Source of the DNA: an uncultured bacterium
GTDB taxonomy: Bacteria > Krumholzibacteriota > Krumholzibacteriia > LZORAL124-64-63
Length of the DNA: 64,000 nucleotides
Assembly (NCBI GenBank): GCA_963732385.1
Contig: CAVSZB010000005.1
Location: 39,742-103,741, forward strand
Direction of reading: 5' to 3'
Below are positions 7,135-25,239 of the stretch, piece after piece. The notes under the pieces were generated by a model, which made no database searches, was not told the DNA's origin, and saw only the letters and a list, made by a program, of their open reading frames with translations. Each line of letters begins with the position of its first letter. Position 1 is the first letter of the stretch. A program made the translations under genes and the position numbers.

Positions 7135-7156
7135 GCCGCCTCCCTTTTCGTCCGGC

Positions 7157-9300: not shown

Positions 9301-9399
9301 GTCCGCGCCGCCCCTCCCCACGGTACGACCAGGTGCGCCGGCGGGAGAATCCCGACCCGCGTGGCGGAGTCTAAGGCGCGGCGGCGGGCATCGCAATCG

Positions 9400-11193
9400 C
9401 TAGTCGACCGGCAGATCGAACTGCTGTGGGCAGCGCATCACCACGGCCGCGGCCAGGAAGCGCGACACGTACTCCCGCGTCTCCTGCGGCAGACACGGCG
9501 CGTCCTTGCGCACGAGGTCCCAGAACTTCCAGCGCGACCACCAGTCGATGTTCATGCGCCGCAGGCAGGCGCGCAGCCCGTTGTCGCCCTTGTTGTAGGC
9601 GGCCACCGCGCACATGCAGTCGTTGGAACCGTAGGCGATCATCAGGTCCTGCAGGTACTGGCAGGCCGCGGTCGTGGCCCGCACCGGGTCCTTGCGCTCG
9701 TCGACGGTGTCGTCGACCCGCAGGCCGTAGTCGCGGGCGGTGCCGCGCATGAGCTGCCACATCCCCATCGCCCCGGCCGGACTCTCGATCTCGGCCTGGT
9801 AGCCGCTCTCGATGAACGGAAGGTAGCAGAAGGCCTGCGGGATCCCCTGCGCCTCGAGCTGCGAGCGCAGCATGTCCAGGTGCGGCCGCGCCCGGCGGAG
9901 CGTGCGCAGGGTGTAGTCGCGCCGGTCGACCGTCCACATCCGCACGGCGCCTTCCACCTCCGCCACCATCGTGCCCGGCAGCGCGTCCAGCCGCGTGTCG
10001 ACCCCGAACTGGGCGAAGATCCGCGACAGCTCCTCTTCCAGGCTGAAGGCCGGCGGCGGCGGGACGGCCGGCGCCGTCTCCTCGGCCGCGGTCACCTCGG
10101 GTTCCGGCGGCGGAGGCGGCGGCGGCCGCCGCCCCTCGCGCAGCTCCTGCAGCAGCGCGAACGGATCGCGGTCCCGCAGCCGATCCCGGTCGATCCGCTT
10201 GGCGGTCTCGCGCAGCGCCTCCCGCACTTCGTCGTCGCTCTGCCGGTCGGGCGGCAGCCGGTCGGCCGCGATCAGCGAGCGGATGGCGATCTCGAACTGC
10301 GCCTTGGCCACGGTGTCGTTGGGCGGCGAAGCGTCGTAGGCCACGAGCGCGTCGTCGAGGCTGCGCCGCGCCTGCTCGACGTACATGTCTTTCGTCCAGA
10401 GCCGCTCCACCCGCTCGCCCGCCGGCCGCAGCGACGGCAGCAGCAGCACCCCCACCAGCACCAGCGCCGCGATCCCCAGCACCATCGCCCCATGCACCGA
10501 AGGCACGGGACACAACTGCACGGTGAAGACGACATCGGCGAACCCGACCCGGTCCCCCACCCGCAGTACCCGCTCCTTGACCGCCTCCCCGTTGACGGAA
10601 GTGCCGTTCCTGCTCCCGGCATCGGTGAGCAGCAGCCGGTCCCCCCGCCGCTCGATCCGCGCATGCACCCCCGAGATCTGCGCCAGCGGCAGCAGCAGAT
10701 CGGCCCCCTCGTCCCGCCCGATCACGCTCAGCTTGCGCGCCAGCAGCAGCGAGGCTCCGCCCGCCCGCGTATCGCGCGACACCAGCCGCAGACAGAGCAG
10801 CCCCGCCGGATCAGGCAGCCGCCGCCCCGCCCCCCGCGCCCGCACCGGCCGCTCGAGCGAGAACACGAACTCCCGCTCCGGCCCCAGCCGCAGCACCGCG
10901 CCGTCCCGCAACGGCGCCCGCCCCACCCGCTCCCCGTCGACAAAGGTCCCGTTGGCGCTCCCCTGGTCCTCGACGAACCAGACCGCCCCCTCCTGCACCA
11001 GCTGCGCATGCCGCCGACTGAGCGCCGCATCGTCGATACAGAGATCGCACCCCGCATCCCGCCCGATCAGCAGCCGCCCCCCGGCCGGCACGCACACGTC
11101 GGCCCCGCCCGCCCGCGGACGCACCCGCGCCCCGCAGGCCGGCCGCGCCCCCGCGCGCCCCCCCGCTCTAAGTCCGCCGGAAGTGTCAGCCAT
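9400..11193 (-). CDS. FHA-FHA-TM-SLT fusion: two N-terminal FHA domains, a TM helix, poly-Pro linker and C-terminal lytic transglycosylase (SLT) domain
   Basis: FHA motifs (GRDAGCDL..SRRHA..GSANGTFV, and IGRDEGADL..SGVHA..GSRNGTSVN), a TM AMVLGIAALVLVGVLLLPSL, a PPPPPPP linker, and the SLT catalytic region ESGYQAEIESPAGAMGMWQLM...YN. Confidence 0.8.
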   Translation of the reverse strand: MADTSGGLRAGGRAGARPACGARVRPRAGGADVCVPAGGRLLIGRDAGCDLCIDDAALSRRHAQLVQEGAVWFVEDQGSANGTFVDGERVGRAPLRDGAVLRLGPEREFVFSLERPVRARGAGRRLPDPAGLLCLRLVSRDTRAGGASLLLARKLSVIGRDEGADLLLPLAQISGVHARIERRGDRLLLTDAGSRNGTSVNGEAVKERVLRVGDRVGFADVVFTVQLCPVPSVHGAMVLGIAALVLVGVLLLPSLRPAGERVERLWTKDMYVEQARRSLDDALVAYDASPPNDTVAKAQFEIAIRSLIAADRLPPDRQSDDEVREALRETAKRIDRDRLRDRDPFALLQELREGRRPPPPPPPEPEVTAAEETAPAVPPPPAFSLEEELSRIFAQFGVDTRLDALPGTMVAEVEGAVRMWTVDRRDYTLRTLRRARPHLDMLRSQLEAQGIPQAFCYLPFIESGYQAEIESPAGAMGMWQLMRGTARDYGLRVDDTVDERKDPVRATTAACQYLQDLMIAYGSNDCMCAVAAYNKGDNGLRACLRRMNIDWWSRWKFWDLVRKDAPCLPQETREYVSRFLAAAVVMRCPQQFDLPVD

Positions 11194-11195
11194 GA

Positions 11196-11627
11196 TCACG
11201 TCGCCGCAGGCAGCGGGAAACACCGGAAGAGGAACCGCGTGCCCCCCATCTGCACCCGGTCACCATCGCGCAGCGCCTGCTCGGTAATCCGCACGTCGTT
11301 CACGAGCGTCCCGTTGGTGGAGTTGAGGTCCCGCAGCACGTACTGCCCCCCCCCGAACACCACCTCCGCATGCCGACTGGAAAGGAACCGATCATCCCCG
11401 ATGATGACATCGCACCCCGCCACCGACCCGAAGCGAAGGGTCCCGGCCGTCAACCGAAAGTCCCGCCCCCGCTGCGCCCCACTGACAGCCACGAGCCACG
11501 CCACCAACTCCTGCCGCCCCACCGGACTCATGAGGACAGCCGTCTTGTCGAGATCGTCCACCGTCATCGCCCCCGGCGCCGCCACCGGCACCACAGGAGG
11601 AGGAGCAGCAGGAGGCGCAGGCGGCAC
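11196..11627 (-). CDS. FHA-domain protein (probably the C-terminal part of a zinc-ribbon/FHA protein)
   Basis: FHA signature FRLTAGTLRFGSVAGCDVIIGDDRFLSSRHAEVVFGGGQYVLRDLNSTNGTLVN. The N-terminus is a Pro/Ala-rich low-complexity stretch. Confidence 0.7.
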   Translation of the reverse strand: MPPAPPAAPPPVVPVAAPGAMTVDDLDKTAVLMSPVGRQELVAWLVAVSGAQRGRDFRLTAGTLRFGSVAGCDVIIGDDRFLSSRHAEVVFGGGQYVLRDLNSTNGTLVNDVRITEQALRDGDRVQMGGTRFLFRCFPLPAAT

Positions 11628-11690
11628 ATAGGCCGGAGGAGCCAGCAGGCGCAGCAGGAGCCGCCGGCGGAATGACCGGCCGCGCCCCGA

Positions 11691-12158
11691 TCACCGTGAT
11701 GTCATCCCCGCCCCCACCGGGTCCCCCCACCCCCGGCCCCGTCGGCACCCGACGGATCGGTTCGGAAACCGGCCGCGCCACCGGCGCATGCTCGATCCGC
11801 CGCACCGGCTCCGGCGCCCGCTGAAAAGGTTGAGGAGCAGGCGGCACCGCGCCAAGGGAGGAGGCGCAGCAGGAGCAGCCGGACAGCAGGAGCAGCCGGC
11901 CAAGTCGGCGGCCCCGCCGCCGGCGGCAGGAGACGTATAGGCAGGAGCCCCAGCCCCCGCATGAGGCGCCGGCGGCATCGGCTCCGCCGCCCGAGCCCCC
12001 CGCCCCGCCGCCGAACTCCCCCGCTCGTCATCTACAGGGATGAAATCCCCGCTAAGATCGCTCCCCCCCTCACAATAAGGACAGCTATCCCAAGACGGAT
12101 CCAGGAGATGCCCGTTCGCACAATGCCGCACCTTGTTCTTCCGCTTCCCGAACAGCAT
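11691..12158 (-). CDS. Zinc-ribbon domain protein with Pro/Ala-rich tail (probable N-terminal part of the FHA protein, split by frame changes)
   Basis: MLFGKRKNKVRHCANGHLLDPSWDSCPYCEG (CxxGH..CPYC zinc ribbon) followed by a low-complexity linker. Three overlapping frames are open across 11390-11850. Confidence 0.5.
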   Translation of the reverse strand: MLFGKRKNKVRHCANGHLLDPSWDSCPYCEGGSDLSGDFIPVDDERGSSAAGRGARAAEPMPPAPHAGAGAPAYTSPAAGGGAADLAGCSCCPAAPAAPPPLARCRLLLNLFSGRRSRCGGSSMRRWRGRFPNRSVGCRRGRGWGDPVGAGMTSR

Positions 12159-12598
12159 GCTCCCCCATCTCCCCCGCAGGACGGCCAAGCCAGCTAACTT
12201 TGTGGCTTGAGAAGGGTTCGGGGCAGTCTACCAACGGGGGTGCGGGGATTGTCAACTTACTGGGCGGAGGACTTGTTCCCAACCCAGCTTCGATCGTAAG
12301 GCCGGCGGGCAGCGTGCTCTCGCCATTTATTGCCCAGGACGCTGCTAGGATTGCCGAGATGGCTTCGAGTCACCCGTCCGCAAGCACTTCAACACGCTGA
12401 TGGCCGTGCTCATGTCGAGCCGGAACATCTGCGGAACGCAAAGCCCCAGCCAACCTACGAGGGCAGTTGATTGCAGCCAGCCCTATAGATTTACACTGCC
12501 ATGCGCTTAGACTATGCTGGTTCAGCCTTGTGGGCCAGGGGGGCCAGCGGGCTCCGTTGCAGTCACCTGATTCATGTTAACCACCGTGGGAGTGGGCA

Positions 12599-13315
12599 GT
12601 GTTTCATTGGATGATGTCGCCGCTTTCCCGACATGTCGACGGGGGCTTCGGCGCCATCGGAGACGCCTACAAGCGCGCCGCCGACAACCTGGATGAACCC
12701 GCTTCCTTAGCGAACCCGAATGGCCACTTGCCGGTGAACTTTTTGCGCCGGCATGCGATCGAGCTCTTCCTCAAATCGATGATTATGGTGCTGCATCGTT
12801 GCTTGAGCGATCCGCAAGACGAGCGCGACGGAGATGCAATGCCGGAAATACAGGTCGATGGTCGGTCGACACCCCTGTCACGCATCCATCGTATCCAGGC
12901 GCTTTTCGACTACTTTATGCAGTTGGCTACGTCTAACCGAGATCGATTTCTGGATGCCGACAAGACGGACTGGGCTAAAGTTCCGAGCGAGCTCGCCGGC
13001 TGGATAGCCGCGATTGAACGAGCAGACGCATCAAGTACTTTCTTCCGCTATCCTGAGCCGCCCAACCGTGCCGCCGTGACAGACAAGTCCGCATGGCGCG
13101 AGGTGCATCCGGAAGACATCGATGCACGGCTGAGCAGGCCAGGTCGTAGCCCTACTGGGCTCTTCATTCTCATGGGCGAGGACGAATGCGTGCGGCTTGC
13201 TTGCGCGCACGAAGGACTTCCGCTCCAGGAACTGTCATTGTCGCTGAAGCAGGCCACCGAGATGTTGTCAGGCGCTCATATCGGACTTAGGGCCGAACTT
13301 GCAGGAGGGTGGTAG
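12599..13315 (+). CDS. Hypothetical protein (238 aa), first gene of low-GC island
   Basis: GTG start with GGGAG about 6 nt upstream. GC is ~55% versus ~70% in the flanks. No recognisable motif. It lies 240 bp upstream of the DUF262 gene. Confidence 0.55.
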   Translation: MFHWMMSPLSRHVDGGFGAIGDAYKRAADNLDEPASLANPNGHLPVNFLRRHAIELFLKSMIMVLHRCLSDPQDERDGDAMPEIQVDGRSTPLSRIHRIQALFDYFMQLATSNRDRFLDADKTDWAKVPSELAGWIAAIERADASSTFFRYPEPPNRAAVTDKSAWREVHPEDIDARLSRPGRSPTGLFILMGEDECVRLACAHEGLPLQELSLSLKQATEMLSGAHIGLRAELAGGW

Positions 13316-13556
13316 TGGCCGAGAATAGCAGCATCAACGAACCGAAGGCACCGCCAGGCGATTGACCTGCGCCAGGCCAGCGCCAATCCGGCTTCGCAAG
13401 CCTTTCTTGCGAGCCATTCGCTACGTAGGTCAGAACAAGCAGAGTACCACAACCGCCCTTCGCGAATGTAAGTGCTGACATCGCAAATTACGGCGGCAGC
13501 CACCAAGTTGGATGGAATCCCGCAATCCAACAGGCACCATTCAAGGAGCATGCTGA

Positions 13557-14654
13557 GTGGAGATCGCAAAGAAACTGACTCCCACCACAAAAACTATCGA
13601 CGAACTAACCGAATTGTTCGACAACGGGCGCCTCGACCTAACGCCGGACTTTCAGAGAAACTCCGTCTGGCCTGGCCCGGCTAAAGCATATCTTGTCGAC
13701 ACCATCCTCAACGACATGCCAATCCCCCTCCTCTTCCTCACTCGAGAGAAGGACACCAATTCCAATCGCCTTCGATACCGTGTGATTGACGGGCAACAAA
13801 GAATTCGTGCCGCCATGGCTTTTCTTCACAATAGGTTCCCGATACCAAATCAATATAACCTTCAGCGCCCCAACGGCACCAAGTTCAAGCGCGTCCGGTT
13901 CCGCAATCTCTCTGAAGCGCTCAAGGAGCGCTTCATTGGGTACAGCTTCGTTGTATCTGAGCTAAGCGGATTCACGGATGAGGAGTTGCGGGACATATTT
14001 GTTCGAATCAACAAGTATGTAGTGCGCCTCAATCCCCAGGAGTTGCGGGACGCAAAGGCACCAGGCCCCTTTAGGCACTTCATCGACCAGTGTTCGCAGC
14101 GTGACATCTGGAACAAGGTCGGCATTTTCACTGGCAAGAATCGCGACCGGAAGCGCGACAAGGAGTTCATCGCTGAGTTGGCGATTCTTCTTCTCGATGG
14201 GCCGCAAGACAAGAAGGGCTCACTCGATCTCTATTACGCAGCAGTGCCCGATCAATTTTCTGGCGACGACCTCCAAGATGACCTTATCGGAACGGCCGAG
14301 ACGATTCACCAGTTGCTAGGAGCAAGCCCCCCTTCAACTCTAATTCGCCTACCTGTGTTTTATGGGCTGGTCGGCGCAATCTACAATATTCGATCAGACG
14401 AGGACGATGCGAAGAGGCTAGATGCGTCACTAACGGAAGCATATGATGCACTGGAAGAATTGTCCGACTTGGCAGATGACGTCGCTAAGGATGGTGCGGT
14501 TCCACCGGCAGACCTCACAGAGGAAGCGAAAGCCCGCCGCACTGACGCAGGGATATTTCGTCGTTCCATCAGCCAGCAGACCGACAATGTTCGGCCTCGC
14601 ACTGCGTGCATCGAGGTCCTTGAGCGCGTGATTCGATCTGCATTCGTTGAGTAG
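13557..14654 (+). CDS. DUF262 (ParB/Srx-like nuclease/NTPase fold) domain protein, 365 aa
   Basis: GTG start with AAGGAG 8 nt upstream. DUF262 motifs DFQRNSVW, AYLVDTILNDMPIPLLF and YRVIDGQQRIRA are present. No DUF1524/HNH C-terminal domain was recognised. GC is ~50%. Confidence 0.75.
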   Translation: MEIAKKLTPTTKTIDELTELFDNGRLDLTPDFQRNSVWPGPAKAYLVDTILNDMPIPLLFLTREKDTNSNRLRYRVIDGQQRIRAAMAFLHNRFPIPNQYNLQRPNGTKFKRVRFRNLSEALKERFIGYSFVVSELSGFTDEELRDIFVRINKYVVRLNPQELRDAKAPGPFRHFIDQCSQRDIWNKVGIFTGKNRDRKRDKEFIAELAILLLDGPQDKKGSLDLYYAAVPDQFSGDDLQDDLIGTAETIHQLLGASPPSTLIRLPVFYGLVGAIYNIRSDEDDAKRLDASLTEAYDALEELSDLADDVAKDGAVPPADLTEEAKARRTDAGIFRRSISQQTDNVRPRTACIEVLERVIRSAFVE

Positions 14655-14659
14655 ATGTC

Positions 14660-15655
14660 GTGCAAGACTTCATCAATCGTTACGAAGAAACCAGAGACCG
14701 CTTGGAAAGGGCAGCCCCTCGTCTTGAGGAGCAGTTAAAGACTGCTCTAAGAGATCACCGCATTCTCTTTCTTGCGGTTTCTGTACGCGTGAAGACTCTC
14801 GAGTCGGCGCTGCGCAAAATCAGCAAGAAGAAGTACAGCGATCCCTGGCAACAGATGATGGACTTGATCGCTGGGAGAATCTTTACCTATTTTCGACCGG
14901 ACGCCACCCAAGTGGAATCAGTTATCAGAGACTATTTTGATGTTCACGAGGAACACTCCAAGAACAAGTCAGATGATCTTGAATTCAACAAGTTCGGCTA
15001 CACATCCAGACACTTGGTATGTTCTCTGCGCGAGCGGTTTCCCGACCTTCGATTGAAGTCTCTAATTCCGGAAGGGATGATGTTCGAGCTTCAGATCCGA
15101 TCCGTCCTTGAACATGGATGGGCTGAGATAGAGCACGAACTGGTCTACAAGTCCGGTACGGAACCTCCAGACGCTATCCGAAGAAGATTTGCTGCCTCTG
15201 CGGCCGCACTGGAAATAGTCGAGCGCGAGTTCGACAGCCTTCGCGACTTTGAATTTCAAATGGCGGTGGATAGGTCGTTAGTCATTTCTGGCAATCTTGG
15301 TGCTCCCCTAGATAGGGCTTGGTTTATCGCCGTGCTGATGCGGGAATATCCTAGTCGCAGCACTTGGAGTCCCGATCCGCAGAAGAATGTCTTCTTCCGC
15401 AGTTATGAGCTCGTGCTCATCGAATCGCTTCGAGCGGTCGGTGTATCTACTGTTCGGGACTTTCTCAACAGGCTTCGCAAGCCAAAGCCTAGAAGAATGG
15501 TTCGCGAGTACGCTAAGAAGCGAGGGATACTCGAGGCCGACGTTTCTCATCTTCCAATCGCGATCTTCGCGACGTTTTATGACTCTGCGATCTCCATACC
15601 TGGAGAAATCAAACAAGTTGCTGACTCCACCATGCGCGAGCTACTGGCTTTATAG
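14660..15655 (+). CDS. RelA/SpoT synthetase-fold nucleotidyltransferase (small-alarmone-synthetase / toxSAS-like) with ~150-aa C-terminal extension
   Basis: Motifs VRVKTLESALRKISKK, DLIAGRIFTYF, FGYTSRHLV and ELQIRSVLEHGWAEIEHELVYK match the RelA/SpoT (PF04607) synthetase core. GTG start lies 5 nt after the DUF262 stop. GC is ~50%. Confidence 0.8.
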   Translation: MQDFINRYEETRDRLERAAPRLEEQLKTALRDHRILFLAVSVRVKTLESALRKISKKKYSDPWQQMMDLIAGRIFTYFRPDATQVESVIRDYFDVHEEHSKNKSDDLEFNKFGYTSRHLVCSLRERFPDLRLKSLIPEGMMFELQIRSVLEHGWAEIEHELVYKSGTEPPDAIRRRFAASAAALEIVEREFDSLRDFEFQMAVDRSLVISGNLGAPLDRAWFIAVLMREYPSRSTWSPDPQKNVFFRSYELVLIESLRAVGVSTVRDFLNRLRKPKPRRMVREYAKKRGILEADVSHLPIAIFATFYDSAISIPGEIKQVADSTMRELLAL

Positions 15656-15781
15656 CGGAGAAAGCCCCCACACGTGGTGCGAGGAGCTGCCTCACTCTAC
15701 GATCGGCTCCTGAGGTGGAACCGTGTCCTCGCGGCATAAGATCTCTCTGGAGGCCTGCTTGAAACGAACCAGACGATCGGG

Positions 15782-16258
15782 CAGTCGCTGGGGCTGACGG
15801 CAAGGCAGATGCGGATCGGGCGGGTGACGGTGGCCATGCGGTACGAGGCGAAGGGTGGGGAGTATTCGCGGAAGTTCAGCCACTATGAGATCTCGCAGCA
15901 GCTCAAGTTCATCGAGGAGGATGTGGCGCGGTACGATGAGTTTCGGGAGGTGCTCCTGGGAGTGCCGGGGTTGCAGGTGAATCAAGAGTTCGAGGCGAGC
16001 GGGGCGGAGTCGGCGAAGAACGACATGATGATCGAGGCACTGCGGTCGGCCAGACGGAAGGCGGAGGCGCTGGCGGCGGTCGTGGGAGCCAATGTCGGGC
16101 GGGCGATTTCGATCAGCGAGTTCAAGCCCAATCCGACGGATCGCGACATCGACACCGTGGCCTTTCTGCGCGGAGTGCCGTTCCGCGGCCCCGAGCCGGA
16201 CGGGATCGAGATCCGGGGGCGGATCTACGCCGTGTTCGAACTCGAGTAGGCAGCGGGC
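15782..16258. repeat. Direct repeat copy 1 (~477 bp, ~97% identical to 18362..18838; offset exactly 2580 bp)
   Basis: Base-by-base comparison of 15782-16258 with 18362-18838. Mismatches cluster in the first ~30 bp. Copy 1 encodes only the C-terminal 146 aa of the SIMPL protein. Confidence 0.85.
15809..16249 (+). pseudogene. Truncated duplicate of SIMPL/DUF541 gene (3' fragment, no signal peptide)
   Basis: The 146-aa translation is near-identical to residues ~102-247 of the 18086..18829 product. Confidence 0.7.
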
Positions 16259-16327
16259 GGCGTCGCTGCCCGATCTGGTGATCTTGCCGGCAGGAGCGGA
16301 CGGCGGACATTCCAAGGAGGGCACGGC

Positions 16328-18028
16328 ATGACCGCCGAGGAGCTCGCGAGGCTGATCGAGGCCGGCGAAACGCTTGCGATCGAGTTCAAGGGCGAGGAGC
16401 GTGAGGGCCTCTCGGATGCCGAACTGGTGGAGACGGTTGTCTGCCTCGCCAACAGGCCGGGTGGTGCCGATGCAGCATGGTTGCTCGTCGGCGTCGAGGA
16501 CGACGGCCGCGTGACGGGCGCGCGCCGGCGACATGCCGACCGCACCGATCCCAATAGGCTGCAGGCACTTGTGGCGAACCGGACGAGGCCGGCGCTGTCG
16601 GTGCGAGTTGACGTGATCGATATCGAGGGCAAGCAAGTCGTTGTCATCGACGTGCCTTTCGCCCGCTCGCCGGTCGGGACGACGGATGGCAAGTACGTGC
16701 GCCGGGCGCTGGGCGGCGACGGTCGACCGGCATGCGTGCCCATGCACTTTCACGAGATGCAATCGCACCAGGCCGATCGCGGCCTGCTCGATCATTCCGC
16801 GCTCGCGCTGCCGGACGCTCGCTGGCAGGATCTCGACCCGCTCGAATTCGAGCGTTTTCGCCGCTTCGTGCGCGAGAGTCAGGGCCGAGGCGATGCGAGC
16901 CTCGTGGAGTTGGCGGATATCGAGCTTGCCAAGGCGCTGGGCGCCGTGCAGGCCAACCATGACGTGTCTGCCGTGCACGTGCTTGGCCTGCTGCTCTTCG
17001 GCCGCGAAGAGGCGCTGCGCCGGCTGCTGCCGACTCATGAGGTCGCCTTCCAGGTTCTGTCGGGCCAGAAGGTGGAGGTCAACGACTTCTTCCGCTGGCC
17101 GCTGCTGCGTGTCGTGGATGAGCTGCTGGCGCGATTCCGGGCTCGCAATCGGGAGGAAGAACTGCTGGTCGGCATGCTGCGGATCGCCGTGCCCGATTAC
17201 GCCCCCGCTGCCTTTCGGGAGGGGGCTGCGAACGCCCTGATCCACCGCGACTACACTCGGCTCGGCGCCGTGCATGTGCAGTGGCGCGAGGACAGCATCG
17301 AGATCGCCAATCCCGGAGGCTTCCCGGAGGGGGTCCGCCTCGACAATCTGCTGGTCACCCAGCCGCGGCCCCGCAATCCCCTCCTGGCCGATGCGTTCAA
17401 GCGCGCCGGCATCGTCGAGCGCACCGCTCGTGGCATCGACACCATCTTCCACGAGCAGCTTCGCAACGGCCGTCCGGCGCCGAACTACGGGCGCAGCAAC
17501 GAGAGCGGGGTCGTGCTTGTCCTGCCGGGTGGCAAGGCCAATCTGGCCTTCGCGCGTCTCGTCGCCGAAGAGAGCCAGGCCGCCCGCCCCCTGTCCTTGG
17601 ATGACCTGTTGCTCCTCAACCACCTCTGGCTGGAGCGCCGCCTGAGTACGACCGAGTCCGCAGTGCTGATACAGAAACCCGAGGCGGAGGCGCGGACCCG
17701 CCTTCAGCGCCTGGTCGAAGCGGGACTCGTCGAAGCGCGCGGCGAGCGCAAGGGCCGGACCTGGCACCTCTCGGCTCCCGCCTACCGGCGCCTTGGGGAG
17801 CCTGGCGCCTACGTCCGCCAGCGCGGATTCGAACCGCTCCAGCAGGAGCAGATGGTGCAGCAATTCGTGGAAAAGCACGGTTCCATCAGCCGCGCCCAGG
17901 TGGCCGAGCTTTGCCGGCTCACCCCTCCGCAGGCCTATCGATTGCTCCAACGGCTTGCAAAGAAAGAACTTCTGTCTCGGCTGGGCTCTCGGGGGCGGGC
18001 CGTCCGCTACGGGCTGAAGGCACGATGA
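16328..18028 (+). CDS. AlbA_2 (Schlafen-like divergent AAA) + HATPase_c_4 + wHTH protein (often annotated as a transcriptional regulator or RecG-like)
   Basis: N-terminal ETLAIEFK...LANRPGGADAAWLLVGVEDDGRVTG (AlbA_2), central ANALIHRDY (HATPase_c_4), and a C-terminal winged-helix region. Confidence 0.7.
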   Translation: MTAEELARLIEAGETLAIEFKGEEREGLSDAELVETVVCLANRPGGADAAWLLVGVEDDGRVTGARRRHADRTDPNRLQALVANRTRPALSVRVDVIDIEGKQVVVIDVPFARSPVGTTDGKYVRRALGGDGRPACVPMHFHEMQSHQADRGLLDHSALALPDARWQDLDPLEFERFRRFVRESQGRGDASLVELADIELAKALGAVQANHDVSAVHVLGLLLFGREEALRRLLPTHEVAFQVLSGQKVEVNDFFRWPLLRVVDELLARFRARNREEELLVGMLRIAVPDYAPAAFREGAANALIHRDYTRLGAVHVQWREDSIEIANPGGFPEGVRLDNLLVTQPRPRNPLLADAFKRAGIVERTARGIDTIFHEQLRNGRPAPNYGRSNESGVVLVLPGGKANLAFARLVAEESQAARPLSLDDLLLLNHLWLERRLSTTESAVLIQKPEAEARTRLQRLVEAGLVEARGERKGRTWHLSAPAYRRLGEPGAYVRQRGFEPLQQEQMVQQFVEKHGSISRAQVAELCRLTPPQAYRLLQRLAKKELLSRLGSRGRAVRYGLKAR

Positions 18029-18145
18029 AAACACACATCGTGGCACAGAAACGCACGCGTGCATTGAAAACGCACGAAGTCGACAATGCGGCGCAATGGG
18101 CGAGCGCGCATTTGGACGCACCTCCTCGCCCAAAGGAGAATCGCC

Positions 18146-18829
18146 ATGCGATCCCTGTCATTCCTGATTCTGCTGGCGTGCATCGTGACAGCCCCGACTC
18201 TGGCTTCGAGCGCCGGGACCATCACCGTCATGGGCGACGCGTCGACGGTGGTCGGCGCGGACCGCGTCATCTGGAAGCTGTCGGTGACGACGAAGGACAC
18301 GAAGCTGGAGCAGGCGACGGCGCAGGCTGATGGGCTGCTGTCCCAGGCGGTGACTATCGGGGAGTCGCTTGGGCTGGCGAAGGAGCAGATGCGGATCGGG
18401 CGGGTGACGATGGCCATGCGGTACGAGGCGAAGGGTGGGGAGTATTCGCGGAAGTTCAGCCACTATGAGATCTCGCAGCAGCTCAAGTTCATCGAGGAGG
18501 ATGTGGCGCGGTACGATGAGTTTCGGGAGGTGCTCCTGGGAGTGCCGGGGTTGCAGGTGAATCAAGAGTTCGAGGCGAGCGGGGCGGAGTCGGCGAAGAA
18601 CGACATGATGATCGAGGCACTGCGGTCGGCCAGACGGAAGGCGGAGGCGCTGGCGGCGGTCGTGGGAGCCAAGGTCGGGCGGGCGATTTCGATCAGCGAG
18701 TTCAAGCCCAATCCGACGGATCGCGACATCGACACCGTGGCCTTTCTGCGCGGAGTGCCGTTCCGCGGCCCCGAGCCGGACGGGATCGAGATCCGGGGAC
18801 GGATCTACGCCGTGTTCGAACTCGAGTAG
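18146..18829 (+). CDS. SIMPL/DUF541 (BP26/Omp28-like) periplasmic protein, full length with signal peptide
   Basis: Signal peptide MRSLSFLILLACIVTAPTLASSAG (ATG at 18146; the ORF frame is open from 18086). The 3' ~450 bp duplicate 15782-16258. Confidence 0.7.
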   Translation: MRSLSFLILLACIVTAPTLASSAGTITVMGDASTVVGADRVIWKLSVTTKDTKLEQATAQADGLLSQAVTIGESLGLAKEQMRIGRVTMAMRYEAKGGEYSRKFSHYEISQQLKFIEEDVARYDEFREVLLGVPGLQVNQEFEASGAESAKNDMMIEALRSARRKAEALAAVVGAKVGRAISISEFKPNPTDRDIDTVAFLRGVPFRGPEPDGIEIRGRIYAVFELE

Positions 18830-18838
18830 GCAGCGGGA
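18362..18838. repeat. Direct repeat copy 2 (partner of 15782..16258)
   Basis: See copy 1. Confidence 0.85.
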
Positions 18839-18839
18839 C

Positions 18840-19061
18840 ATGGCACGCAAGGGATTCCATAAGGCGCAGAAGAGCATCGAGGTCTCGGTCGGGGAATCGG
18901 TACGTATCATTCGGGAGTTGCAGGAGCTGAGCCAGAATGAGCTGGCAGAGCTTTCTGGAATTCCGCAGTCGACGATTTCTGCGATCGAGAACGATCGTGT
19001 CAGTCTTGGCAATGATCGACGCCCAGGGCGCGGCCCCCCAACGTGGCTCGCAGCAGGTTGA
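18840..19061 (+). CDS. XRE-family helix-turn-helix protein (short; C-terminus looks atypical or truncated)
   Basis: HTH_3 signature IRELQELSQNELAELSGIPQSTISAIENDR. Confidence 0.55.
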   Translation: MARKGFHKAQKSIEVSVGESVRIIRELQELSQNELAELSGIPQSTISAIENDRVSLGNDRRPGRGPPTWLAAG

Positions 19062-19148
19062 TTCCCTGAGCACTTGAACATCGGCTTTACCCGCACCGCC
19101 AGGAATCGATGAGGCGCTGCCCCAGCCGCTACAGAGACGGGAGGTTCC

Positions 19149-20237
19149 GTGTTGTCCGACCTGTCCGCACTTGAACGGATCGGCTATTCACCGCGCTGGC
19201 AGGCGCTTTTCGCGCCTCATGTCGCGGGGGGGCTGACGGCCGCGCGTGTCATTCGCTGCGATCGTGGGGGCGTGCTGGTCGCGACGGTGGGCGGGATTCT
19301 GCGGGCGAGGCTGTCCACCCGGCTTCAGAAGGCGGCGGGAGGCCCGGCGGATCTGCCGGCGGTGGGCGATTGGGTCGCCGTGCTGGCTCCGGGGGACCTG
19401 GATGCGGCGCTCATCGACGTGGTGCTCGAGCGGGCGAGCGCCATCACGCGCGGGGATCCGGGGAAGACGTCCAACGTCCAGGTGCTGGTCGCGAACATCG
19501 ACATCGTGTTTGTCGTGCAGCCGATCGCCGGGGCGCCGAATCTGCGCCGCATCGAGCGCGAGCTGTCCGTGGCGTGGGAGTCGGGGGCGCTGCCGGTGGT
19601 GGTGCTCACCAAGGCGGACCTGTCGGACGATCCGGAGGGGGCGCGGGCGGCGGTCGAGGCGATCGCGCCGGGGGCGGACGTGCATGCGCTGAATGCGCTG
19701 GCCGGAGAGGGCGTTGAGCCCCTTCTCGCCTATGTCTCGGGGCATCGCACCGCCGTTCTGATCGGGCCGTCGGGCGCGGGGAAGTCGACGCTGGTCAACG
19801 CGCTGCTCGGCGAGCGACGGCAGACCACGCGCGAGGTGCGGCTGAGCGACGGGCGGGGACGCCACGCGACGGTGGCGCGCGAGCTGATCGAGCTGCCGGG
19901 GGGCGGCGTGCTCATCGACACGCCGGGGCTGCGTGAGCTTGGGCTGACCGGGTCGGAGGAAGGGATCGCGGCGGCCTTCCCTGAGATTGAGGCGGCCGCG
20001 CAGGCGTGCCGGTTCCGCGACTGTGCGCACGGTGATGAGCCGGACTGCGCCGTCCGGGCAGCCGTCGAGTCGGGCGCGCTGTCGGCCGAGCGACTGGCGA
20101 GCTACCACAAGCTGGTGCGGGAGGCGCAGCTCGCGGCGGCGAAAACGGACGTACGGCTGCGCTCGGAAGAGAAGCGCAAGTCGAAGGTCTTTGGCCGGGC
20201 GGTCAAAGAGTTCCACAGGCGGGGCGGGCGCGACTAG
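19149..20237 (+). CDS. rsgA: Ribosome small-subunit-dependent GTPase A (RsgA/YjeQ)
   Basis: Motifs GPSGAGKSTLVNALLG, RLSDGRGRHAT and DTPG, plus a C-terminal zinc finger CRFRDCAHGDEPDCAV. Circularly permuted GTPase order. GTG start. Confidence 0.9.
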   Translation: MLSDLSALERIGYSPRWQALFAPHVAGGLTAARVIRCDRGGVLVATVGGILRARLSTRLQKAAGGPADLPAVGDWVAVLAPGDLDAALIDVVLERASAITRGDPGKTSNVQVLVANIDIVFVVQPIAGAPNLRRIERELSVAWESGALPVVVLTKADLSDDPEGARAAVEAIAPGADVHALNALAGEGVEPLLAYVSGHRTAVLIGPSGAGKSTLVNALLGERRQTTREVRLSDGRGRHATVARELIELPGGGVLIDTPGLRELGLTGSEEGIAAAFPEIEAAAQACRFRDCAHGDEPDCAVRAAVESGALSAERLASYHKLVREAQLAAAKTDVRLRSEEKRKSKVFGRAVKEFHRRGGRD

Positions 20238-20283
20238 GTGATCCCCGTGGTCCGCTCCCCCACGCCCGCCCCTGATCCGGCGA

Positions 20284-21075
20284 TCACTCCGGGATCATTC
20301 GGGGCAGCACGCCTCCGGGGCGGCCGAAGTGGGGAACGGTGTCGCCTCCATCCACCGGGTCGGGGCTCACGAAATTTCGTTTCGAAGCTGAGAAGTACAG
20401 GCATCCGGATTCGGCCGGCGGGCGACTCCGCACGAAGGCCTCGGCCTCCTGCAGCGCAGCGATCCAGGTCGCCTTGAGCTGGACGAGGTCGATCGGGACC
20501 GCCAGATCGAGGTGCGCCAGGTCCTCCGGCCGGACCCTGCCCCGTCGTCGGAGCATCTCCAGCAACGAGAGCGGCGCGTAGCCGGGGTCCTTGCCCACGG
20601 CGGCCCACACCAGGGCTCCGAGCGGCAGGACGTTTTCGTGCAGATAGACGGTGTCGAGCAGGTCCCGCGGTTCGTCGCGCCCGGCGAGGGCCAGGACCTT
20701 GTTGGTCGCCAGATCGATCGGGTGGAGCTGGTAACCGAACTCGTCACTGCGCATGACCGGCATGAAACGCCAGGCCGAGTCCTGGGCCCACTCGATTTTC
20801 GTCGCGGTCTCGCCCTGGCAGACGATGGCTCGGATATGGCCCGGCTGGCTGATCTCCGTTTCCACATTGTAGCCGTTCGCCACGAGGGTGCCGTGATCAG
20901 CCGCGAAGGCCGAGGCCACGCGGACGGCGCTGTCGTGGAAGTAGTCGAGGTCGTGGCTGAATCGGTGGGTGTTGGGGGCCACCAGAATGGCCGCCGCACC
21001 GGCGAGATAGCTGTGCTCACTGCGGTTCGTCGCGAGCAGGCGTCCCAGCCGGGCCTGGAAATCAGTCAGCGGCAC
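20284..21075 (-). CDS. AbiEii/DUF1814-like nucleotidyltransferase (type IV toxin-antitoxin toxin-like)
   Basis: N-terminal LAGAAAILV....HRFSHDLDYF resembles the DUF1814 GGTAL...R.S.D.DF motif. It is paired with a small upstream gene. Convergent with rsgA. Confidence 0.5.
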   Translation of the reverse strand: MPLTDFQARLGRLLATNRSEHSYLAGAAAILVAPNTHRFSHDLDYFHDSAVRVASAFAADHGTLVANGYNVETEISQPGHIRAIVCQGETATKIEWAQDSAWRFMPVMRSDEFGYQLHPIDLATNKVLALAGRDEPRDLLDTVYLHENVLPLGALVWAAVGKDPGYAPLSLLEMLRRRGRVRPEDLAHLDLAVPIDLVQLKATWIAALQEAEAFVRSRPPAESGCLYFSASKRNFVSPDPVDGGDTVPHFGRPGGVLPRMIPE

Positions 21076-21333
21076 AGCTGAGCCCCTTTCTCCCAGGCGT
21101 GGCGGCCGCCGTGCCGCATCAGTTGCTCGGCGACCCAGGCCACGTCGGCGGCGCCGATCTCGAGATCAGGCGGACAGGACCAGAAGCAACGGGCGTGATA
21201 GGTGCGATAGGCCCGGCGCGCCTCGCGTACCCGGACCATGGCCCGGGCTTGCGCCGGCGCAAGTTCACGGCGGCTGTTGCGGCCGCCCCGGCTGCCGATC
21301 TGAGCGAGGTACCTGCGGACTGGAGTCTTCATG
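21066..21333 (-). CDS. Small basic protein (~89 aa), putative partner or antitoxin of the AbiEii-like gene
   Basis: Begins MKTPVRRYLAQIGSRGG...; its stop overlaps the downstream gene's start by 10 nt. Local GC is low. An alternative start at 21345 conflicts with the putative -10 box. Confidence 0.4.
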
Positions 21334-21340
21334 GAATATA

Positions 21341-21369
21341 TCATAAGCGGCTTATGATCTAACGTCAAT
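21341..21369 (-). promoter_or_regulatory. Sigma70-like promoter TTGACG-17-TATGAT immediately upstream of the small gene (leaderless transcript predicted)
   Basis: Minus-strand TTGACG at 21369-21364, a 17-nt spacer, TATGAT at 21346-21341, then the ATG 7 nt downstream (21333). It sits in the only AT-rich patch of the region. Confidence 0.35.
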
Positions 21370-21548
21370 GTATGAATATTGTTATATGAATAGTATAGCT
21401 CATTTTCAGAATCCGCTCGCCCCCGTGCGTCGAGGGGGCCACCAGCCCGCGATTCACAGCGGATGGATCGCACAAAGCGTCTGGCGCTGGTCGATTCGGG
21501 GCGGAAGGCGTTAGACTCAGGGAACAACTCTCGCACCGGGAGGAAGCG

Positions 21549-22190
21549 ATGCAGGCCAGTGAGCATGAGGCGATGTGCCAGGCGGTGGTGGACGGGGACG
21601 CGGGGCGGGCCCGGGCGCTTGCGCTGGGGATCGTGGAGGCGCGGGGGGATCTCTTGGCGGCGGTGGAGCACGGTTTCGCCGCCGGGATCCGTCGGGTCGG
21701 GGAGCTCTGGGAGGAGGGCGAGTACTTCCTGCCGGAGCTGGTGCAGGGGGCGGAGGCGATGAAGGCGGCCATGGAGATCCTTAATCCGGCGTTGGTGGCG
21801 GGGCGCGGAGCGGCGCCGGCGCGGGCCGGGGTGGTCATTGGGACGGTGCGGGGGGATCTTCACGATATTGGGAAGGGGCTGGTTGCCACGCTTTTGTCGG
21901 CGCATGGGTTCGAGGTTTACGATCTGGGGAGCGATGTGCCGATCGAGGCGTTCGTGGCGCGGGCCGGGGAGACGGGGGCCAGGATCGTGGCCGCTTCGGC
22001 GCTGTTGACGACGACGATGACGGCGCAGCGGGATCTCGTGCGCGCGATCGCGGAGGCGGGGCTGGCGCCCCGGGTGCGGGTGCTGGTGGGGGGAGCGCCG
22101 ACTTCGGCGGCGTGGGCGGCGGAGATCGGGGCGGCGCATGCGGAGAATGCGCTGCGGGCGGTGGCGGTGGCGGAGGGGTTGGTCGCGTGA
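21549..22190 (+). CDS. Cobalamin-binding corrinoid protein (B12-binding_2 + B12-binding domains)
   Basis: DxHxxG motif (GDLHDIGKGLV) and a Rossmann-like C-terminus; similar to MtbC/MtgC-type corrinoid proteins. Confidence 0.8.
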   Translation: MQASEHEAMCQAVVDGDAGRARALALGIVEARGDLLAAVEHGFAAGIRRVGELWEEGEYFLPELVQGAEAMKAAMEILNPALVAGRGAAPARAGVVIGTVRGDLHDIGKGLVATLLSAHGFEVYDLGSDVPIEAFVARAGETGARIVAASALLTTTMTAQRDLVRAIAEAGLAPRVRVLVGGAPTSAAWAAEIGAAHAENALRAVAVAEGLVA

Positions 22191-23107
22191 GTGGCCGGGC
22201 GGGGCGGAGCGGACTGGGCGACCGTCTGCGGGCGGGGCCGGTGCTGCTGCTCGATGGGGGGCTCGGGTCGTCGTTGATCGAGCGGGGGTTGACGGCCGGG
22301 ATGGCCCCCGATGCCTGGAACCTCGAGCGGCCGGACGATGTCGCGGCGGTGCATCGCTCCTTCGTCGAGGCGGGGAGCGAGGCGATCCACTCGAATACCT
22401 TCGGCGGCAACCGGATCAGGCTGGCGCGCGCCGGGCTGGCCGGGCGGCTGGCGGAGGTCAACGCGGCGGCGGTGGCGCTGGCGCGCGGGGCGGGCGCGGC
22501 GTTCGTGATCGGCGACCTCGGCCCCACCGGGGAGTATCTGCCCCCGGTCGGCGCCGGGGATCCCGAGGCCTGGGCCGCGTCCTCCCTGGAGCAGGCGAAA
22601 GCGCTCGTCGCTGCCGGGGTGGACGGCATCCATCTCGAGACGATGAGCGATCTGCGCGAGGCGCGGATCGGCATCGCCGCGGTGCGCTCACTCTCGACCG
22701 ACCTCCCGCTCCTGGCCTCGCTCACCTTCGAACGCAAGAAGCGGGGGTTCTTCACGGTCATGGGCGACCGGCTCGTTCCCGCCCTGCAGGCGCTGCGTGA
22801 AGCCGGGGCCGACGTGGTCGGGGCCAACTGCACGCTCGGCAGCGACGATTTCCAGGCGCTGGCGGCGGAGGCGCTCTCGGCCGGGTTGCCGATCGTCCTC
22901 CAGCCGAACGCCGGGCAGCCCGAGGTGGTGGCGGGGCGCGTGGTCTACCGGCAGGCGCCCGAGGCGTTCGCCGACGACCTGGCCGCGGTCCTGTCCCTGC
23001 CCGCGGACGGCGGCGGGCGGATCGCGGCGGTGGGCGGTTGCTGCGGCTGCGACGCCCGTTTCATCGCGGCGCTGCGTGGCCGGATTTCCGGGGCGCCGCC
23101 TCCATGA
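22187..23107 (+). CDS. Homocysteine S-methyltransferase-domain protein (Pfam S-methyl_trans; MetH N-terminal-module-like)
   Basis: GTG start overlaps the upstream stop. Motifs LLLDGGLGSSLIERGL, IHSNTFGGN and a Cys-rich GGCCGC near the C-terminus. Confidence 0.7.
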   Translation: MSGRAGRSGLGDRLRAGPVLLLDGGLGSSLIERGLTAGMAPDAWNLERPDDVAAVHRSFVEAGSEAIHSNTFGGNRIRLARAGLAGRLAEVNAAAVALARGAGAAFVIGDLGPTGEYLPPVGAGDPEAWAASSLEQAKALVAAGVDGIHLETMSDLREARIGIAAVRSLSTDLPLLASLTFERKKRGFFTVMGDRLVPALQALREAGADVVGANCTLGSDDFQALAAEALSAGLPIVLQPNAGQPEVVAGRVVYRQAPEAFADDLAAVLSLPADGGGRIAAVGGCCGCDARFIAALRGRISGAPPP

Positions 23108-23775
23108 TCGACGCCCTGTCCATCGAGACCCCGCTGGCGGAGGTGCATCGCCTGCTGGGATACCCCGCGGGACGCGTCGTGCCGGAGCGCGTGCGGTCGC
23201 GGCTGGAGGCGCTCCTGGCGGAGAGCCGGAGCCTGATCGAGGCGCGCGGGGCCCACGCGCGGTTTCCCGTGGCCGAGGCCGACGCCGTGCAGCTGACCCG
23301 GCCGGGGCCCGCGAGCGCTTTGGGGGAATTTGCGCTCGGGCTGGTCACGATCGGCCCGGGGGTCGAGACGCGCGCCGCCGCCATGCTGCGCGCGGGCGAC
23401 ACGAGCGGCGCCCTGTTGCTCGACGCGATCGGATCGGCGGCGGCCGAGGCGGCGGCCGATGCGCTCGGCAGCCTCATCGCGGGCGGGACGGCGGCCGGCG
23501 GTGTCGGGGAGCTGGCGCTTTCCCCCTGCCGCGTCAGTCCCGGCTACGGGGACTGGCCGCTGTTTGCGCAGGAGGCGATCTTCGCGCGTCTCCCCCACGA
23601 GGAACTCGGCGTGCGGCTCCTCCCCTCGCTGCTCATGACGCCACGCAAATCGATCACCTTCGCCCTCTGGTTCGACGCCGCCGGACACGCCCTCGGCGAC
23701 CTGCGCGGCTGCTCGTGCTGCCCGCTGGATCACTGTCCGCGGCAGGATGCACGGCAGAGAGGAAAACCGGCATGA
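23104..23775 (+). CDS. MetH activation-domain-like protein (vitamin-B12-dependent methionine synthase activation region family), low confidence
   Basis: ATGA overlap with the upstream gene. C-terminal CSCCPLDHC. Assigned mainly from position in the corrinoid cluster and size. Confidence 0.4.
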   Translation: MIDALSIETPLAEVHRLLGYPAGRVVPERVRSRLEALLAESRSLIEARGAHARFPVAEADAVQLTRPGPASALGEFALGLVTIGPGVETRAAAMLRAGDTSGALLLDAIGSAAAEAAADALGSLIAGGTAAGGVGELALSPCRVSPGYGDWPLFAQEAIFARLPHEELGVRLLPSLLMTPRKSITFALWFDAAGHALGDLRGCSCCPLDHCPRQDARQRGKPA

Positions 23776-25239
23776 ACTCCGCGTATCGTCCCCTCGTCCG
23801 CGTTCTCGATCCTGAGGAGCCGTCGCGCATCGTCGACGAGGCGATCGCCGTGCTCGAGATCATCGGCGTGCGCGTCGACAGCGAGGCCGGGCGGACCCTG
23901 CTCCTGGACGCCGGGGCTACGGCCGACGGCGACCGGGTGCTGATTCCCGAAACGCTGGTACGGCAGGCGCTGGCCACGGTCCCGCACGCGATCCATCTGT
24001 TCGACCGCGACGGGCGCGAGGCCGCCGATCTGTCCGGGGACCGGGTGCATTTCGACCCGGGCTCGGCGGCGATCCAGGTGCTCGACCCGCGCACCGGGCA
24101 GCGACGCGCAGCCGTCACCGCCGACGTCGTGGACCTGGTGCGTCTCGTCGACGGCCTCCCCCACTACGCGATCCAGTCGACGGCCCTCCTCGCCGCCGAC
24201 GTCCCCGCGGAGGTGGCCGACCGCTACCGGCTCTACCTGGCCCTGCGGCAACGGCCGCAAGCCGATCGTGACCGGCACCTTCCGGACCGACGGCTTCGCG
24301 CCGATGCGCGACCTGCTCGTGGCGGCGCGGGGCGGCGCGTCCGCGCTGGCCGAGCGTCCGCTGGCCATCTTCGACTGCTGCCCGAGCCCGCCTCTGGCCT
24401 GGAGCGATCTCACCTGCCAGGCGCTGCTCGACTGCGCGCGCGCGGGGATCCCGGCCAACCTGATCTCGATGCCGCTGGCCGGCGCCACCGCGCCGGTGAC
24501 GCTGCGCGAGTCGGTGGTGCAGCATGCGGCCGAGAGCCTCTCGGGGATCGTCCTCCACCAGCTGGCGGCGCCCGGCGCGCCGATCTCGTGGGGCGGCGCA
24601 CCGGCGGCGTTCGACATGCGCCACGGGACGACCCCCATGGGGTCGATGGAGACGATGCTCCTGAACCTCGCCAACGCCCAGGTCGGCAAGCACCTCGGCC
24701 TGCCGGTCCACGGGTACCTCGCCCTCTCCGACGCCAAGACTCCCGACTACCAGGCCGGCATGGAGACCGGCATGGGAGCGGTGCTGGCCGCGCTGGCCGG
24801 AATCAACCTCGTCTCGGGACCGGGAATCCTCGACTACATCCTCACCCAGTCGCCCGAGAAGCTCGTGCTCGACCATGAGGCCTGCGGGATGGCGCTGCGG
24901 CTGGTGCGCGGCGTGGCGACGAACCCGGTCGACATGCTCGCCCTCTTCGCCGACCTGGTGCGGACCGGAGAGTTCCTCTCGCATCCGCACACGCGGGCCA
25001 ACTGGAAGTCGGAACTGACCGTGCCCTCGGCCGTGATCGACCGCGACACCTGGGCCGACTGGGAAGCGAAAGGGACCCTCGACGCGGCCGCGCGGGCGCG
25101 GGCGGAAGTGGCGCGCCGACTCGCGCAAGCGCCGGACTCTGCCGCGCCGGATCCGCTCGCGGCAGAGCTCGACCGCATCATGCTGGCGGAGCTCTCCCGC
25201 CATGGGATGACGCGGTTGCCGGGGATGGGGCGGGGTTAG
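23772..25239 (+). pseudogene. MttB-superfamily (non-pyrrolysine) quaternary-amine:corrinoid methyltransferase with an apparent 1-nt frameshift near 24240-24250
   Basis: The N-terminal part MNSAYRPLVRVLDPEE... (frame of 23772) and the C-terminal part ...RKPIVTGTF...HGYLALSDAKTPDYQAG... (frame of 24268) are colinear with MttB. Leu sits at the Pyl position, and there is no in-frame TAG. Confidence 0.65.

Follow-up and report, generated by a model that had tools for sequence, protein, structure and literature searches.

How did a gene of the AlbA_2 type come to lie between two copies of the 3′ part of a SIMPL gene? The question is raised by a stretch of 64,000 nucleotides, hereafter the window, from an uncultured bacterium of the Krumholzibacteriota (contig CAVSZB010000005.1, positions 39,742 to 103,741 of the forward strand), in whose coordinates positions are given unless another contig is named. 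A truncated SIMPL gene (the stump), an AlbA_2 gene and an intact SIMPL gene follow one another here, all on the + strand. Several points should be addressed in turn. Is the repeat real? What is the DNA that it brackets? Was the arrangement made by a dedicated mobile element or by the host itself? On our reading, to which we assign a probability a little above one half (about 0.55), the stump, AlbA_2 and SIMPL constitute a merodiploid built by the general recombination of the host and not by the enzyme of a mobile element.

Compared in register at an offset of 2580 bp, the interval 15782-16258 differs from its counterpart at 12 of 477 positions (97.5% identity), with eight of the mismatches in the first 23 nt. 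An exact offset, an identity of about 97% and a concentration of mismatches at the 5′ edge had all been noted in a preliminary description of the locus and are borne out. The repeat has two parts, a near-identical core of 453 bp and, on the 5′ side, a diverged shoulder. The core (15805-16257, repeated on the same strand and at exactly the same offset as 18385-18837) is 99.3% identical and carries three substitutions, in the order left/right G/A at 15830, T/G at 16093 and G/A at 16219. Identity breaks off abruptly at 16257/18837, 8 nt past the SIMPL stop codon. With the SIMPL gene of a related contig, L001, as outgroup (L numbers denote loci used for comparison), one of these differences is private to the left copy and two to the right, the pattern expected of two young copies from one sequence. 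Three differences in 453 positions may be set against a backbone divergence of approximately 7% from the nearest relative. The repeat looks like a genuine, recent and partial head-to-tail segmental duplication. Its unit of 2580 bp is the sum of the SIMPL unit (715 bp), the flank that follows it and the AlbA_2 module, and the window holds 1.18 such units. No further SIMPL copy was found elsewhere in the 64-kb window and no inverted repeats were found at the unit ends.

The two copies differ in completeness in the way first described, with a truncated, signal-less gene on the left and an intact one on the right. The right-hand SIMPL unit (18123-18837) consists of a 23-nt leader with a ribosome-binding site, the gene itself (18146-18829) and 8 nt after the stop codon. 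The product of 227 residues, already on record in exactly this form, has a signal-like hydrophobic N-terminus and a full-length SIMPL domain (PF04402, DUF541; 9e-22, profile positions 1-161 in Pfam). The left core holds the 3′ two-thirds of the gene. Its open reading frame (ORF, 15809-16249) encodes 146 residues, lacks a signal peptide and matches only positions 60-161 of the same Pfam profile. The source record carries this frame as a called gene (product P0002), a look-up of P0002 returned no record, and we flag the annotated ‘gene’ as a pseudogene stump. What the left copy alone retains is the native 3′ flank of SIMPL (16258-16277), identical at 19 of 20 positions to the post-stop sequence of L001. 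This flank is absent after the right copy, the flank of which is unlike that of L001, and a similar flank follows a SIMPL relic at positions 16128-16224 of L005, the closest genome contig.

Could a repeat of this kind have been created by assembly, either as a chimera of strains or as a loop of the repeat graph passing the 3′ end of SIMPL twice? The contig was assembled from a metagenome and strain variants of the locus coexist in related samples (L005, L090 and L007-L009). The preliminary description had raised an artefact, which we judge very unlikely although, on the contig sequence alone, not negligible. The copies differ by three substitutions and have four distinct flanks; the left-type 3′ flank occurs independently in L001 and L005, and the right-type 5′ end in L001 and L090. 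In addition, an AlbA_2 protein identical over all 566 residues is encoded on two short-read Logan contigs of about 1.9 kb (ERR15459710, 1892 bp, and ERR12035938, 1879 bp). Judged by coordinates only, one of them has its start in the left repeat, of which it takes in 30 nt, 100 nt ahead of the AlbA_2 start codon; the other runs 51 nt past the joint of AlbA_2 and SIMPL before it stops. Logan assemblies are reportedly built with k = 31, so that k-1 is 30 nt, and such ends would be consistent with the repeat being real in independent samples, as for a k = 31 graph at a true repeat. The nearest relative, moreover, is a long-read metagenome-assembled genome (MAG) of the Microflora Danica catalogue, which comes from deep Nanopore sequencing (PMC12313526); such reads would span 3 kb, a point that applies to the window if its assembly is of the same type.

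The gene between the repeats (16328-18028) is what it had been taken for, an AlbA_2/HATPase_c_4 gene. The protein combines SLFN_AlbA_2 (PF04326, 4e-14) and HATPase_c_4 (PF13749, 1.6e-16) domains with a C-terminal winged helix-turn-helix (HTH_24 and others). It shares 75-91% identity with more than 100 full-length homologues, found in MAGs of Gammaproteobacteria, Nitrospirae, Bacillota, Thermus, Planctomycetes and others, and at the nucleotide level the identity to one Gammaproteobacteria MAG contig is 87-88%. On the contigs of these homologues a conserved operon encodes an SNF2-type helicase, AlbA_2, DUF4391, and type III Mod and Res proteins (in L091-L095, Mod matches PADLOC MTase_III at 2.6e-224 and Res an NCBIfam model at 2.6e-107). 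The blastn match of the window to this operon in L091-L095 and L006 spans 16262/16282-18122, some 1.85 kb. The module so delimited (16274-18122, 87.5-88.3% identity) contains the last 50-66 bp or so of the helicase gene, the intact AlbA_2 gene and 94 bp of downstream spacer. Mod, Res and other parts of the operon were found neither elsewhere in the surrounding variable region nor in its relatives. As only AlbA_2, the helicase 3′ tail and the spacer remain, the AlbA_2 gene of the window is an intact orphan of an operon resembling type III restriction-modification (R-M) systems, and the position of the cuts, one inside the helicase gene and the other in an intergenic spacer, marks the module as a torn fragment and not a self-contained element. 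The high conservation of AlbA_2 across phyla implies a presumably recent and wide horizontal spread of the SNF2/AlbA_2/DUF4391/Mod/Res operon.

The base composition deserves comment, as the intervening DNA had been described as host-like in guanine plus cytosine (GC) content. This is loosely correct, with 0.676 for AlbA_2 against 0.715-0.735 for the backbone. However, AlbA_2 homologues on unrelated contigs have values of 0.675-0.678, and since the gene simply matches its homologues elsewhere the GC content is uninformative on origin; the module is a piece of a horizontally spread type III R-M-like operon rather than host DNA.

The spacer past the AlbA_2 stop codon (18029-18122) is itself a conserved intergenic element, with three GAAA(A)CRCAC repeats and a palindrome, GCACGCGTGC. 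It is kept in L091, L006 and L096, and in the window it stands upstream of SIMPL. It may be an operator for the downstream genes of the operon. L096 is another AlbA_2 fragment, for which no link to SIMPL was found.

Where in the chromosome has this happened? L005 (also L011, CAVYVY010000011.1) has an RsgA protein 92% identical to that of the window; for the next named relative, Candidatus Eisenbacteria, the value is 72%. The backbone common to the window and L005 comprises 6720-12258, 19089-25244 and everything from 26578 on. Homology of the backbone to L005 and L008 stops at 12258, and homology to L005, L007-L009 and L090 resumes at 19089-19106, which defines 12259-19088 as a variable region between a gene with an FHA domain and rsgA. 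From left to right the region holds a low-GC block, the SIMPL stump, AlbA_2, intact SIMPL and a truncated XRE-type helix-turn-helix (HTH) gene, here XRE′. The same interval is occupied in L007-L009 by a RhuM fragment only, and in L005 by FlgD_ig/CARDB genes and a decayed SIMPL relic. It is a recombination hot spot with cargo that differs among relatives.

XRE′ (18838-19088, + strand) forms the right edge of the variable region and is joined directly to SIMPL at position +8 after the stop codon. Its ORF (18840-19061, GC 0.57) covers only positions 2-35 of the 55-position HTH_3 profile in Pfam; other matches are to control-protein/HTH models in PADLOC and an antitoxin-type HTH in NCBIfam. Beyond it lies rsgA (19149-20237, + strand; Pfam RsgA_GTPase, 3e-44), the first conserved backbone gene rightward and our anchor for the comparison of relatives, with nucleotide identities of 91-93.5% to L005 and L007-L009.

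The preliminary description had suggested that related genomes be compared for an uninterrupted SIMPL locus lacking AlbA_2, and such loci exist. L090 and L005 each carry, directly upstream of rsgA, one SIMPL gene that is 3′-deleted or decayed, and no AlbA_2. They have a deletion joint in common, between SIMPL nucleotide 433 or thereabouts and window position 19089, so that SIMPL immediately upstream of rsgA is ancestral in this group. One putative deletion of 510 bp from a window-like SIMPL-XRE′ arrangement explains both. L001 (84-85% nucleotide identity) likewise has one SIMPL gene, followed by the AbiEii backbone.

We turn now to the 5′ edge of the left copy, where the mismatches are concentrated. 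The shoulder (15749-15804, + strand) reads in frame GGLLETNQTIGQSLGLTARQ, a SIMPL-like peptide when set against DGLLSQAVTIGESLGLAKEQ. At 15772-15804 it is identical to the right copy at 24 of 33 positions, with the SIMPL reading frame kept, and a weaker similarity extends back in register to about 15749 (33 of 56 positions), the stop codon at 15737 lying upstream. The match of 24 in 33 has a binomial tail of 6e-8 and was equalled by five of 200,000 random 33-mer pairs from the window; the likeness to SIMPL is not due to chance. A 17-mer of the shoulder, CTGGGGCKGACGGCAAG, is also present in the SIMPL relic of L005, itself a mosaic, diverged on the left and standard on the right. The edge mismatches are those of a different SIMPL allele, of which the shoulder is a remnant, joined at about 15805, and not wear on a duplicate. 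The source of this allele was sought among relatives of the low-GC block without success; the RelA_SpoT family used for that purpose is rare (17 matches) and the contig examined ends 145 bp past the gene. Among 97 fetched loci there was no match for the DNA preceding the shoulder (15640-15810), for the XRE′ region or for the low-GC block.

The same boundary invites another explanation. Two old SIMPL paralogues might flank AlbA_2, their last 453 bp recently homogenised by gene conversion, in which case the shoulder would be a true residue of old divergence. Identity does jump from roughly 60-73% to 99.3% at 15805, the tract would end exactly at the right limit of homology, at +8, and the relic in L005 is a similar mosaic. 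Against this, the left-copy flank beyond +8 agrees with the L001 type at 19 of 20 positions, which shows that the copy is not generally diverged, and some 56 nt of ‘old’ sequence is too short for an even divergence of paralogue level to be recognised. Nor would conversion account for how a fragment of an operon came to have a SIMPL copy on either side. We therefore regard gene conversion as a distinctly improbable account of the repeat.

What the joints offer is a sequence of steps for construction by general recombination. At 16262-16278 the SIMPL flank and the helicase 3′ end resemble each other, and this patch suggests that flank and AlbA_2 module may have been joined through microhomology; the L001 flank may include a relic of the module, although the overlap that can be assigned with confidence is just 4-16 nt. 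As a first step, then, a 1.85-kb operon fragment bearing only the AlbA_2 gene would have joined the native SIMPL 3′ flank at the patch. Second, the resulting SIMPL-AlbA_2 unit and a resident SIMPL next to XRE′ and rsgA would have given SIMPL-AlbA_2-SIMPL, either by a Campbell-type single homologous crossover of a 2.58-kb circle through SIMPL or by unequal crossing-over with subsequent loss of the second AlbA_2. The two routes would lead to the same topology and are inseparable from sequence. Third, and here the support is indirect, a later homologous exchange may have replaced everything to the left of a crossover, its right-hand limit lying in a highly conserved stretch of SIMPL, CAGATGCGGATCGGGCGGGTG, at about 15805-15830. 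Besides the divergent left flank, it would have imported the low-GC block with GmrSD_N and RelA_SpoT and a stump of the other SIMPL allele.

Two considerations point to more than one event. A single crossover between two diverged alleles should leave similar divergence on both sides, not 60-73% against 99.3%. Also, excision between the repeats would leave a chromosome holding only the SIMPL stump, so that the present layout needs at least one further event. Support for the third step comes from the recurrence of the shoulder 17-mer in the mosaic relic of L005 and from the left flank, which is an outlier. At 12074-12258 the window has an identity of 71-73% to L005 and L008, against 92% between these two relatives, while in the right flank all pairs give 91-93.5%. 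Such divergence points either to import of the segment or to very rapid local change.

The preliminary description held that integration of a circular molecule by homologous recombination through the shared segment would produce this layout. The topology agrees, and excision between the repeats would indeed set free a coherent circle, 2580 bp long, that holds the AlbA_2 module and an intact SIMPL with its native 3′ flank: the left copy keeps the native 3′ flank and the right copy the native 5′ leader and gene, so that the circle popped out would carry a complete SIMPL unit. The proposal is incomplete in that further events are needed and that other routes give the same layout. In the manner of suicide plasmids and the translocatable units of IS26 type, direct repeats of a shared segment bracket the insert, recombination between them would free the circle and no site-specific sites are required. 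The shared segment, however, is an ordinary periplasmic-protein gene and not an insertion sequence or plasmid backbone, and no circle or replicon is known here; a search of plasmid and viral collections gave no match to a free circle or donor replicon. The left copy, moreover, is now a hybrid stump, so that the pre-integration site cannot be reconstructed. The ‘empty site’ after excision would be the stump fused to XRE′, an arrangement that no relative has. Duplication-amplification, through unequal crossing-over or illegitimate recombination followed by trimming, is the other close parallel: the order is head-to-tail, there is one novel joint (18122/18123), the copies are near-identical and RecA-dependent instability is expected. 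It differs in that only 1.18 units remain and that unrelated DNA has taken the place of either outer end, the low-GC block to the left and XRE′ to the right.

A number of points weigh against construction by general recombination. The immediate precursor, a single SIMPL followed by an intact XRE gene, is absent among the relatives, as is any locus with SIMPL, flank and AlbA_2 that lacks a second SIMPL. The history needs at least three events. The low identity of the left flank could reflect a fast-evolving, low-complexity sequence in the FHA protein in place of import, and the sharp boundary at 15805 could be the end of a gene-conversion tract. A common SIMPL start at -22/-23 in three contigs with different upstream DNA would fit a discrete cassette better, although selection that keeps the ribosome-binding site within short spacers can produce the same. 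We also caution that the layout is that of an assembled contig.

The divergent left flank may be used to argue for a different donor. A linear fragment from a related strain, comprising left flank, low-GC block, SIMPL stump, flank and AlbA_2, could have been added to the chromosome with the left backbone homology as anchor and an illegitimate join just upstream of the resident SIMPL, that is by homology-facilitated illegitimate recombination. The two SIMPL copies would then be orthologues from two strains and not duplicates made in place. In keeping with this are the outlying flank (71-73% against 92% between relatives), the occurrence of the left-copy flank type in L001 and the second L005 relic with the right copy in its resident XRE′ context, and an AlbA_2-SIMPL joint (18122/18123) with microhomology of at most 1-2 nt. 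Yet SIMPL would have to be 99.3% identical over 453 bp in strains that differ by about 27% in the neighbouring backbone, the diverged shoulder would be left to an earlier event in the donor, and a donor-like contig was not found. Taken together these make the linear donor unlikely, while deserving to be kept in mind.

Is there any trace of site-specific machinery? No integrase or transposase, whether tyrosine or serine recombinase, was identified among all ORFs in 12259-19088 with Pfam, PADLOC or NCBIfam. As for an IntI integrase with attI nearby, Pfam gave no recombinase domain in the variable region; the wider window was not exhaustively scanned. The repeats encode SIMPL (PF04402) only and no transposase. 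Pattern scans of the 64-kb window for attC sites (R″ RYYYAAC … R′ GTTRRRY, in an imperfect palindrome) gave no relevant matches, the same pattern recovering 13 sites in L002. Folding of the junction flanks gave z-scores of -0.9 to +1.1, hence no significant structure. An att-like motif at the left edge of the hot spot, TGTCAACT, was considered and rejected, since it occurs once, at chance level. A promoter and terminator scan of 15500-19300 produced no informative sites.

These results bear on the idea that SIMPL is a discrete cassette of a site-specific system, integron-like or other, and that stump, AlbA_2 and SIMPL are the remains of a decayed cassette array. The match of SIMPL to L001 and to L090 sets in at 18123/18124, 22-23 nt ahead of the start codon, and the upstream DNA is different in all three contexts. 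SIMPL 3′ relics sit at the edges of two variable regions, with a third position in L001. A homologue with 48% identity is a genuine integron cassette, its array having 13 attC sites, and in L012, a more distant rsgA relative, rsgA is preceded by two attC-like sites. Nevertheless, the window has no attC-like site and no joint displays a GTTRRRY core; no integrase was found, and the flanks are without significant secondary structure. The ends of the AlbA_2 module are arbitrary cuts in an operon, and the two copies do not end the SIMPL unit at the same point on the right (+8 against +28). A cassette origin of the array is, in our estimate, highly improbable.

The SIMPL homologue just mentioned, in L002 (1-13963; also in L003 and L004), stands in a textbook cassette array, where 13 attC-type sites (CTAAC…GTTAG, about 95 nt) separate genes on the same strand that include BrnT/BrnA, HepT and two copies of DUF4440. 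The order of cassettes differs between samples (L003 and L002). In L012 (RsgA 68%) the two attC-like imperfect palindromes (2766-2848 and 4813-4909) are 5-7 kb upstream of rsgA, which hints that this region hosts integron cassettes in part of the clade. The SIMPL type of the window is itself rare, with six matches in 5.8 billion proteins; relatives were absent from species-representative genomes, metagenome contigs of the JGI, viral contigs and plasmids. Among the SIMPL neighbours in L001, L002 and L003, Pfam recognised only a UvrD-like helicase, and no conserved partner.

Comparison with other known arrangements sharpens the picture. As in integrase islands in which the 3′ end of the target gene is duplicated (tRNA, tmRNA or protein-gene att sites), a 3′ fragment and an intact gene form direct repeats that enclose acquired DNA of defence type. 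Their order is the opposite one, however: the fragment (15805-16257) precedes the intact gene (18146-18829) on the same strand, and the repeat is 453 bp long instead of a short att core and is not accompanied by an integrase. Integron arrays resemble the locus in their compact single-gene modules on one strand, and the distant SIMPL homologue in L002 is a true cassette, but the window lacks attC, IntI and GTTRRRY joints and the AlbA_2 module is a fragment of an operon. Unlike the repeats of a composite transposon or IS26-like unit, those described here have no transposase or terminal inverted repeats. Defence-island hot spots with flank-mediated turnover share the fixed position, between the FHA gene and rsgA, and the varied cargo, which includes GmrSD_N, RelA_SpoT, AlbA_2 and AbiE-type genes; the host is in this case uncultured and Eisenbacteria-like, and a cargo gene, SIMPL, itself appears to act as the recombination anchor.

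The remaining cargo of the hot spot is the low-GC block (12259-15740, 0.547 GC), with three genes on the + strand: an ORF of 238 residues with no assigned family (12599-13315), a GmrSD_N/DUF262-type gene (13557-14654; Pfam, and in PADLOC NsnA, 5.5e-37, or PD-T4-2_A) and a RelA_SpoT-domain gene (14660-15655; Pfam, and PDC-S33 in PADLOC). The latter two recur as a tight pair in L097 (66% identity), beside a Shedu-like SduA_C gene. They probably represent a two-gene defence module of a rare family, to judge from the 17 RelA_SpoT homologues. To the right, rsgA is followed by an AbiEii-like nucleotidyltransferase gene and its small upstream partner (20284-21360). In L007-L009 the AbiEii gene has an internal deletion of 744 bp (equivalent to 20309-21052 of the window), and in L001 the pair follows SIMPL directly, rsgA not being between them. 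On the left, ARAGORN calls a tRNA-Ser(gct) at 8281-8351 on the - strand in a stretch of 0.80 GC; the same positions match the coding region of the FHA-domain gene in L005, so the call is possibly a false positive.

A second variable region lies beyond. At L005 16128-16224, corresponding to window position 25244, the end of the MTTB gene is joined, at a GCGCGG microhomology, to what remains of a decayed SIMPL 3′ part and its flank, and this relic marks the left edge of the region. The window has an ORF of 197 residues there (25245-26577); L007 is almost empty.

Might SIMPL, then, do this repeatedly? SIMPL 3′ ends with the same flank border two variable regions, one upstream of rsgA and one past the MTTB gene of L005, and occur at a third site in L001. 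Hybrid SIMPL alleles with differing crossover points occur in two genomes, and the distant homologue in L002 is a true cassette. One could propose from these that SIMPL, possibly a former integron cassette, is a portable homology anchor that has repeatedly carried neighbouring defence DNA between hot spots of this clade with no dedicated recombinase, and stump-AlbA_2-SIMPL would be one snapshot of a recurring shuffling in which a gene serves as att site. We consider this rather unlikely. If true, it would constitute a recombinase-free route for the shuffling of defence genes.

Shared homology is already known to give rise to segmental duplications and merodiploids in defence hot spots, and the present locus adds a new instance, of well-resolved anatomy, from a poorly known phylum. 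It provides an example of a defence-associated gene that has been broken out of a type III R-M-like operon, itself widely transferred, and survives as an orphan at a chromosomal hot spot in an uncultivated soil phylum, and a reminder that a matching GC content is no evidence of host origin. Repeats of 453 bp at 99.3% identity should permit AlbA_2 to pop out by RecA-dependent recombination, taking with it the only intact 5′ end of SIMPL, and the arrangement would be unstable unless under selection. A few hundred base pairs of a duplicated gene make the cargo excisable by ordinary recombination.

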